DNA of 64,000 nt, taken from a virus. Under the pieces are notes generated by a model. It did no database searches. It was not told where the DNA came from and worked only from the letters and a program-made list of their open reading frames with translations. The position numbers and the translations under genes are program-made. The stretch is taken from positions 15,693 to 79,692 of the IMG/VR virus record IMGVR_UViG_3300032105_000042; one strand, 5' to 3'. The first letter of the stretch is position 1. The number at the start of each line of letters is the position of its first letter. Positions 11,404-54,108 of this stretch are shown here, piece after piece.

Positions 11404-11560
11404 GTCCCTTATATTTCAACTACTTGGCAGGACGGCGATTTCCCTTATGTCTCAACGACTTACCAGGGGGTTACTAAGTCTCAGGGGGATTGTTCCCGCG
11501 AACCCCTAGCCAGGGCCACTTCCGGGCTAAATATCCCTTATATAACAATAGCTTATGGGG
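11404..11560. repeat. Three spaced copies of TCCCTTATRTNWCAANNRCTT
   Basis: gtcccttatatttcaactacttgg (11403), ttcccttatgtctcaacgacttacc (11440), atcccttatataacaatagcttat (11534). Confidence 0.65.
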
Positions 11561-11971
11561 GGCACGATTTTTCCTCCCAGGGTCCCCATTTTTCTTTACA
11601 TTCGGGACGGCGGTACCTATATTAGCTGTAGGGGTTAAAACCCCTAACCCTAGTGTCATATGCTAGGGCGTCCCCCGGAGGGGGCCTTGGGGAAGAAGCC
11701 TAACCGCCACCCCTTAAAGGTAAAGCTGGAGATTCCCCCCTTCGACGGTTCGGTGGCCCGGTTATCGGTATAGTGGTGGTGCCCGGTCATAGGTCAGGAA
11801 GTGCCTCGTTCCGGACGCGTGTGATGCGCGACGTGGAGACCGTGGGTGGCTATGGGTTGTTGAGGTGTGTTCAGGCCCGTATTACTTATTTGCTGCCCTT
11901 GGCCGAAGCGTCGTAGCAGCGCGACGATGGGCGGGGGAAAGCTCTGACGAGGATCTCCTCCTCCTATGAAA

Positions 11972-12047
11972 GTCGAAACTCGGCCTGCCTTGTGCAAGCC
12001 GGGTCCACCGAGCGCTGGCCAGCCCGGTGCTGACGACGACAGGCCAG
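11972..12047 (+). ncRNA. Type II hammerhead ribozyme HH1 (cleavage after C12005)
   Basis: GTC-GAAA-CTCGGC/GCCGGG-TC-CACCGAGC/GCCCGGTG-CTGACGA-C-GAC; pseudoknot CTGGCC/GGCCAG. Confidence 0.85.
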
Positions 12048-12063
12048 ACCATAGGAGGAGATC

Positions 12064-12291
12064 ATGAAAACTTCAGCAAAAGAGTTCTCAGAGGCTTTGC
12101 AGAGCCTAGTCGATCAAGTCATCGATGGTGACGAAGAGTTAATGAACGAGCTCGCGTACGACCCAAAGCTCTTTGGGGATGGATCAACCCAGACGTACAG
12201 CGAGCTTGGTATCCTTACTACGGATGCTGGCTTCGTCCTTCGGACAGCCGATGGTTCCGAGTACCAGGTGACCATTGTCAAGTCTAGTTAG
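12064..12291 (+). CDS. Small early hypothetical protein
   Basis: RBS CATAGGAGGAGATCATG; ends LTTDAGFVLRTADGSEYQVTIV. Confidence 0.8.
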   Translation: MKTSAKEFSEALQSLVDQVIDGDEELMNELAYDPKLFGDGSTQTYSELGILTTDAGFVLRTADGSEYQVTIVKSS

Positions 12292-53544: not shown

Positions 53545-54098
53545 AATCCCCTCCTACTCTTCCTCACAACTCCTCCCACTGAACCACACTGAACCACACG
53601 CAGCTCAGCTACACTACACAGTCCACCCACACCTGATACTCCACCACAGCAGGACGTACAGCCCGACCACGTGGACGACCGCCAATGCTATCCACCCCCA
53701 CACCATAACTACTTACTTGCTCTCTTCCTGTGCTTCTTCACAATCCCCTCCTACTCCTACTCTGAAACTCCTCCTCTGACACCTAGCTTGCTCTCTTCCT
53801 ATGCTTCTTCATTTTACACGCTTGGAGGACTCTCTACCCCTCCTCCTGTGCTTCCTCACAACTCCTCCTCTGCCACCTCCCCACAACCCATCAACCCACT
53901 CAGCGAACCACCCTCAGCTTCCAGTCCGAACTCAACTCCCTCTCCAGGATCCTGTGCCGTCGGTGGGGATAGTAACGTCTAGAGTGCTCATCCTCATCCT
54001 ATGCTTCTTCACAACTCACCACACTTACCCCTCCCGAACTGACGCACTGCACTCCTGCCAACCCTCCTCCGACTCTTCTTCCTATGCTTCTTCCGCAA
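53521..54098 (-). repeat. Six dispersed copies of the RBS + (G/A/T)TG AAG AAG CAY AGG start, giving micro-ORFs beginning M(R)KKHR
   Basis: CCTRTGCTTCYTC on the + strand at 53530, 53727, 53798, 53845, 53998 and 54081. Confidence 0.8.
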
Positions 54099-54108
54099 CC
54101 CCTCCTGC

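Follow-up and report, generated by a model that had tools for sequence, protein, structure and literature searches.

The window, by which we mean the whole 64,000-nucleotide stretch of DNA analyzed here, comes from an IMG/VR phage record of 79.8 kb. Small genes form an early operon at approximately 11.6-18.0 kb of the window, with a type II hammerhead ribozyme and a shared ribosome-binding site (RBS) cassette before each gene. Upstream of the operon are genes for a DnaB-like helicase and for a protein with weak similarity to the uracil-DNA glycosylase superfamily. A simple core pattern recognizes ten hammerhead copies in the operon; Rfam places five copies above the cut-off and a sixth below it, and the genuine operon hammerheads score 37-58 bits. 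On the plus strand of the array, the RBS cassette is present in seven exact copies and in four with one mismatch. We take the cassette RBS to be an almost perfect extended Shine-Dalgarno (SD) sequence, and its complement presumably resembles the 3' tail of 16S rRNA, the reference being the conserved bacterial tail.

The early operon has a sigma-70-type promoter (TTTACA, 17 nt, TATATT; 10/12 matches) on the plus strand at 11595-11623, the hexamers of which occupy the same aligned position in the related loci L131, L121 and L127 despite different letters. We infer a transcription start near 11630. Upstream of the promoter, CCCTTATRT-type motifs are found in three copies in L131 (L131:1490-1660) and in at least one copy in the window (11530-11560); they may be candidate operator or promoter repeats.

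The transcript would open with a non-coding, structured leader of about 375 nt (11630-12005, plus strand), which matches no Rfam family and would be the 5' product of cleavage by HH1, the first hammerhead of the operon. HH1 is a type II ribozyme (11971-12048, plus strand) that matches the Rfam Hammerhead_II model with 37.5 bits against a cut-off of 37. Its core, which has an additional C following A9, is intact. Stem II consists of GUC/GAC only (11972-74 with 12038-40), and a pseudoknot joins loop I to the 3' tail (12016-20 with 12042-46). The stems and the pseudoknot still pair through compensatory changes in L131 and L137. Cleavage falls between 12005 and 12006, after C12005. An earlier note on this DNA had the released leader fragment start at 11901. 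There is no active ribozyme upstream, so the RNA released by HH1 begins instead at the transcription start, and the fragment runs from about 11630 to C12005. Downstream of HH1, the first RBS cassette, RBS1 (12050-12063, plus strand), precedes the first cassette gene (12064-12291, plus strand), which has its start codon at 12064 and encodes a 75-aa protein of no family.

Within the leader, CTCCTCCTATG at 11958-11968 is the exact complement of the shared RBS (11/11 letters match) and ends 3 nt ahead of HH1 stem II, which starts at 11972; both observations had been made in the earlier note. Together with GAU at 11952-54 and a CUC bulge, the 11-nt complement makes up an extended anti-RBS on the plus strand at 11952-11969. 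Matches to the RBS cassette with no more than one mismatch number 19 in all, against 1.3 expected, and the anti-RBS match exceeds chance. In the record, only two exact copies run in the opposite sense, at 11958-11968 and 17962-17972. The second copy, a twin of the first on the same strand, lies in the 3' trailer of the operon (17835-18030), 3' of a terminal type I hammerhead-like element and directly before the terminator hairpin, and is kept in L117. Both non-coding ends of the ribozyme-cut transcript bear the identical anti-RBS, each time after GGAUCU. The trailer copy is carried on a short, ribozyme-released RNA of about 125 nt that ends in the terminator and has no adjacent RBS. Unlike it, the leader copy abuts HH1 and is predicted to be able to clamp RBS1 in cis.

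The terminal hammerhead-like element occupies 17833-17905 in the window and L117:5180-5260. Its core is intact by eye, and Rfam gave no report for it at E<=5. One pair of its stem III is changed on both sides between the window and L117, and the cleavage triplet is GUU in the window and GUC in L117.

A gene on the minus strand that uses the inverted RBS was considered and rejected: no ATG, GTG or TTG lies at a usable distance, and the only frame has 22 codons and starts at ATC. Elsewhere in the window, the minus strand at 53700-54100 carries five copies of an approximately 18-nt purine-rich GAAGAAGCAYAGGARGAG-like repeat. All five differ from the early RBS cassette by one mismatch and sit together in a stretch of about 600 nt without long open reading frames. 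They may act as iterons, form a structured leader or bind the anti-RBS RNAs.

Relatives of the locus and conservation of the leader

Relatives were sought by three routes: through homologues of the window's first gene, through an unbiased 20-nt anchor inside HH1 that was searched in metagenome contigs, and through genes homologous to the glycosylase-like gene upstream or to a different first gene. The full leader is available in four sequences (the window, L131, L121 and L127), and only its 3' part in L137, L136 and L117. Two more sequences, L259 and L260, are identical to L131 and therefore add no variation. A blastn search of GenBank phages returned no relative of this locus, leader patterns had no match in viral contigs or genome contigs, and the window's first gene had no relatives among viral contigs. 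The pattern of an anti-RBS followed by a hammerhead start gave five loci in viral contigs, all of them chance matches without ribozymes, and a search with the 14-nt RBS cassette was uninformative (80 loci with one match each). Neither the relatives of the helicase (24-39% identity) nor one relative of the DUF2786 protein encoded in the operon have hammerhead arrays. A phage with a shared RBS and without hammerheads (L135) carries a more distant homologue of the L127 first gene. Three independent Logan contigs of the L127-type phage (L128-L130) break about 75 nt past the glycosylase-like gene, inside a GC-rich direct repeat, which may be a cause of the rare assembly of the leader.

The leaders of L121 and L127 are roughly 77-80% identical to that of the window. 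The four full-length leaders differ by 1-nt and multi-nt indels, which argue against a coding function. A conserved hairpin with a GUCAU-containing loop opens the leader (11648-11668 in the window), and in L127 one of its closing pairs differs on both sides. Just upstream, the window and L131 have a further small hairpin (11631-11645), which is absent from L121 and L127.

The 3' end of the leader is the most constant part. In the block at 11920-11979, 4 of 60 columns are variable, compared with 25-65% of columns in the remaining 20-nt leader bins. Across all seven variants, no change occurs in the 28 nt that begin with GAUCU, include the anti-RBS and reach the start of HH1. The anti-RBS is retained in L137 though the HH1 body has been swapped there for a hammerhead with unrelated stems. 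The new body (L137:246-312) has its own stem and pseudoknot letters, with the anti-RBS, the AGUCGAAAC start and the RBS kept; the swap fits recombination within the conserved ribozyme core and the RBS joints. Another variant, L136, has in its first 150 nt (L136:1-150) a U4-to-C change in the HH1 core, a G8-to-A change in the hammerhead-like heptamer upstream and a G-to-T change at the end of RBS1, and is either a decaying copy or the product of low-coverage assembly errors.

RBS1 itself changes at its edges. L117 and L136 share an A-to-G substitution, L136 also has G to T, and L137 has C to A. The anti-RBS stays the same in each of them, and it thus matches the consensus cassette instead of tracking RBS1. 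The gene behind RBS1 is also variable. Four different first genes stand behind the same leader, HH1 and RBS1 among the relatives, and the window's first gene is the third or fifth gene in relatives. This exchange of first genes among close relatives, in which the leader, HH1 and RBS1 stay, speaks against the earlier suggestion that the regulation is aimed at the gene at 12064.

Predicted pairing of the anti-RBS with RBS1

Since the anti-RBS and RBS1 bracket HH1, and stem II of HH1 has only 3 bp, their pairing would place an 11-bp helix just outside stem II. This helix is formed in the minimum free energy structure predicted for 11890-12075. An asymmetric internal loop of 3 and 9 nt separates it from stem II, and the 9-nt side holds the tail that pairs with loop I in the pseudoknot. 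The clamp is dominant in the local folds of all seven variants, with a pairing probability of 0.60-0.98. RBS1 has a pairing probability above 0.98 in local folds and is predicted to be the sole masked RBS among the 11; in contexts from -150 to +70, its mean unpaired probability is 0.002, compared with 0.22-0.69 for the other ten. The masking of RBS1 in cis, as put forward in the earlier note, is therefore the dominant predicted local structure. When full leaders are folded, leader-internal partners compete, and the probability that the anti-RBS pairs with RBS1 is 0.17, 0.44, 0.62 and 0.99 in the four sequences.

Nine of the 11 pairs in the clamp are invariant. L117 and L136 retain a G.U pair after the A-to-G change in RBS1, and the changes at the helix end in L136 and L137 are without compensation. 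No compensatory covariation was found in the clamp among these sequences, which are too alike for covariation to weigh much.

Duplexes of the anti-RBS with the 11 cassette RBSs have predicted energies of -20 to -23.5 kcal/mol. On paper, the anti-RBS also pairs with 77 GGAGG-rich sites of the window at -19 kcal/mol or lower. Energy by itself thus says little about which target is used, and a scan for trans targets on this basis was rejected as too unspecific. For the two halves left by HH1 cleavage, the predicted ddG is -15.9 kcal/mol at 37 °C and -11.3 kcal/mol at 70 °C. The earlier idea that HH1 frees an anti-RBS RNA is supported insofar as the cut would place the anti-RBS on a separate RNA. 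Cleavage as an ON switch for RBS1 is not supported, as the two products are predicted to stay annealed.

Possible roles of the leader element

The reading that we prefer, tentatively and at a little less than an even chance, is that a conserved anti-SD element at the 3' end of the leader pairs with the shared RBS cassette of the operon and thereby represses or holds it. From the sequence, its conservation and the predicted pairing, we infer effects on translation and on ribozyme activity. The stretch at 11958-11968, aided by GAU at 11952-54, would be the anti-SD element of the structured leader. Because it lies 3 nt before stem II, the helix could close over the whole ribozyme once RBS1 has been transcribed. 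This 11-bp helix, at about -21 kcal/mol, would mask RBS1. HH1 would cut after C12005 and turn the leader into a separate RNA that bears the anti-RBS. The products should stay annealed, so the cut alone would not free RBS1. The anti-RBS would act in cis on whichever gene comes first, and it would probably act in trans on the other ten cassettes. Trans action is proposed because the trailer bears an identical twin, the first gene can be exchanged and the element matches the consensus cassette. As for the ribozyme, a pseudoknotted type II hammerhead was found to be less active when as little as 1 bp was added to its stem II (Perreault et al. 2011, PMC3088659), and the clamp may thus hinder HH1 rather than cooperate with it.

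A broader proposal, which we consider unlikely, is that the leader and trailer fragments, as look-alikes of the 16S tail (GGAUCU...CCUCCU), outlast the single-gene messages, build up in the course of infection and increasingly titrate the 11 extended SD cassettes, with the leader also gating the first cassette and HH1 in cis.

The earlier note had instead described an ON switch, in which uncleaved RNA masks RBS1, HH1 cleavage activates the first gene, and a dead ribozyme upstream has been reused as the switch. We regard this as rather improbable. The same masking helix is predicted for it, the full-length folds are close to bistable, with the clamp and leader-internal pairing as the two alternatives, and engineered SD-sequestering hammerhead and twister constructs express more with an active ribozyme (Felletti et al. 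2016, PMC5052635). However, the cleaved halves are predicted to remain together at 37 °C, as given above, the first gene is not conserved, and the identical trailer twin is left unexplained.

The putative dead ribozyme fares no better. The hammerhead-ordered letters are present as described at 11902-11952 on the plus strand, the 3' half of which falls within the most conserved block of the leader. They comprise GCC (11902-04), GAAG (11905-08), CGTCG/CGACG (11909-13/11922-26), AT (11927-28), GGGC/GCT(C) (11929-32/11941-44), CTGACGA (11944-50) and GG (11951-52), and GGGGGA (11933-38) is able to pair with TCTCCT (11954-59), as had been noted. No hammerhead model matched this stretch at E<=10 in a 1-kb scan or in a 91-nt scan; the latter still listed a 3-bit match to another family. 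CUGACGA is present, and GAAG puts a G opposite A at the expected A15.1-U16.1 pair. The core positions drift in relatives, with G12 to A in L121, position 15.1 to C in L127 and G8 to A in L136. The stem II-like pair is broken in two of the five sequences that cover both sides, its 3' G is an A in three of seven, and no compensatory pairs were found in the hammerhead-like stems among the variants. Homology of the stretch to real cassettes was rejected, as blastn-short finds only a 7-8 nt core. A local hairpin at 11896-11937 was likewise rejected (z-score of -0.8 against shuffled sequences; four unpaired cells in L137). Judged by its sequence, the stretch is probably not a ribozyme and is predicted to be part of the leader's own fold. 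That it is the relic of an old ribozyme seems improbable, with nothing positive in support. The reuse of a dead ribozyme as a switch is thus not supported, given the missing model match, the drifting core and a better-fitting alternative pairing.

This alternative pairing comes from RNAalifold, which joins 11928-36 with 11804-13, 11943-48 with 11793-98, and 11964-69 with the RBS-like CAUAGG at 11787-92. The predicted partner of 11928-11969 is a well-conserved leader block on the plus strand at 11787-11813. The pairing has 22 pairs with all 110 of 110 cells paired and one compensatory pair, and every substitution is compatible with it. A shuffle control was not significant (195/500), since the variation is too small, and we treat this predicted fold as tentative. 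Its existence bears on a further reading, to which we give about as small a chance as to the ON switch, namely that the CU-rich stretch is kept mainly for leader architecture, by pairing with 11787-92 and with 11793-11813 nearby, and that its complementarity to the RBS is secondary. The predicted helices, with substitutions in both conserved blocks all compatible with pairing, are consistent with such a role, as are folds of the released leader, in which the anti-RBS is mostly paired internally (unpaired probability of 0.18-0.51). Yet the helix uses 6 of the 11 nt, whereas all 11 and the flanking GAUCU are invariant and the RBS match is exact; the trailer twin is in a different sequence context, and the shuffle result also counts against this role.

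Alternatively, the helix could be only a folding aid that closes the open, 3-bp stem II of HH1, which, in contrast to the internal ribozymes, lacks a gene end upstream. The helix does lie immediately outside stem II, and HH1 is the lowest-scoring of the copies that Rfam detects and has the extra C after A9. Against these points, the other nine type II copies manage with 3-bp stems and no such helix, extension of stem II was harmful in the published mutagenesis (PMC3088659), and both the exact RBS complementarity and the trailer twin would go unexplained. We consider this role quite unlikely. Least probable is a relic at the DNA level, in which inverted RBS fragments mark the borders of a recombining cassette array and have no function as RNA: cassettes are clearly shuffled between relatives, the HH1 body is swapped in L137 and the two copies do mark the array borders, but both copies are invariant next to leader sequence that varies at 25-65% of columns, and their similarity to real cassettes is limited to the 7-8 nt core.

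Other hammerhead arrays and known systems

At least 120 viral loci matched a hammerhead pattern, several of them with arrays, and seven of the array loci each have their own shared RBS cassette. On the array strand, five of these seven lack any complement of that RBS when one mismatch is allowed. A single complement with one mismatch occurs in each of L162 and L207, downstream of the array and within chance expectation. The seven other array loci are thus without a clear anti-RBS, which points to a feature of this phage lineage and not of arrays in general. Among the viral contigs, L161, L160, L162 and L211 are independent array phages with their own RBS cassette after every ribozyme, L161 having about nine copies of an AAUGGAGAYU-type cassette. 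A linker made of a ribozyme and a fixed RBS seems to be common across array phages.

Anti-SD sequences that act in cis are known from bacterial 5' UTRs, such as RNA thermometers and riboswitch expression platforms, and CU-rich anti-SD seeds are known from small RNAs. In those systems, a CU-rich stretch that pairs with GGAGG blocks 30S binding. The leader described here differs from them in that an entire self-cleaving ribozyme lies between the masking strand and the RBS. Furthermore, its anti-RBS matches a cassette RBS that is repeated 11 times, and it would be released on a non-coding end fragment.

Engineered SD-hiding switches are closer in design (Felletti et al. 2016, PMC5052635; the twister designs are that study's own, and the hammerhead design is cited therein). 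In these switches, as here, the SD is paired with a ribozyme-linked strand in the 5' UTR, and cleavage separates the masking strand from the mRNA. The engineered switches are synthetic, and their short masking stems were chosen to fall apart after cleavage. In contrast, the present element is natural and would form 11 bp plus 3 bp just beyond the stem II of a type II hammerhead. Its helix is predicted to persist after cleavage, and the 3' end of the operon bears a second copy of the element. The clustered hammerheads of Perreault et al. (2011, PMC3088659) are, like those of this operon, pseudoknotted type II ribozymes between small phage genes, and they imply processing of polycistronic RNA. 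Unlike this operon, no anti-RBS element was described for them.

The purpose of many bacterial and phage hammerheads is an open question (reviewed in PMC6765202). The locus analyzed here presents a natural hammerhead that is bracketed by an RBS and its exact complement. If titration by the end fragments were true, it would amount to a protein-free timer that shuts off early translation. If the pairing of the anti-RBS with RBS1 is real, it would tie ribozyme processing in a phage directly to translational control, and it would provide a natural counterpart of designs that have so far been confined to synthetic biology.
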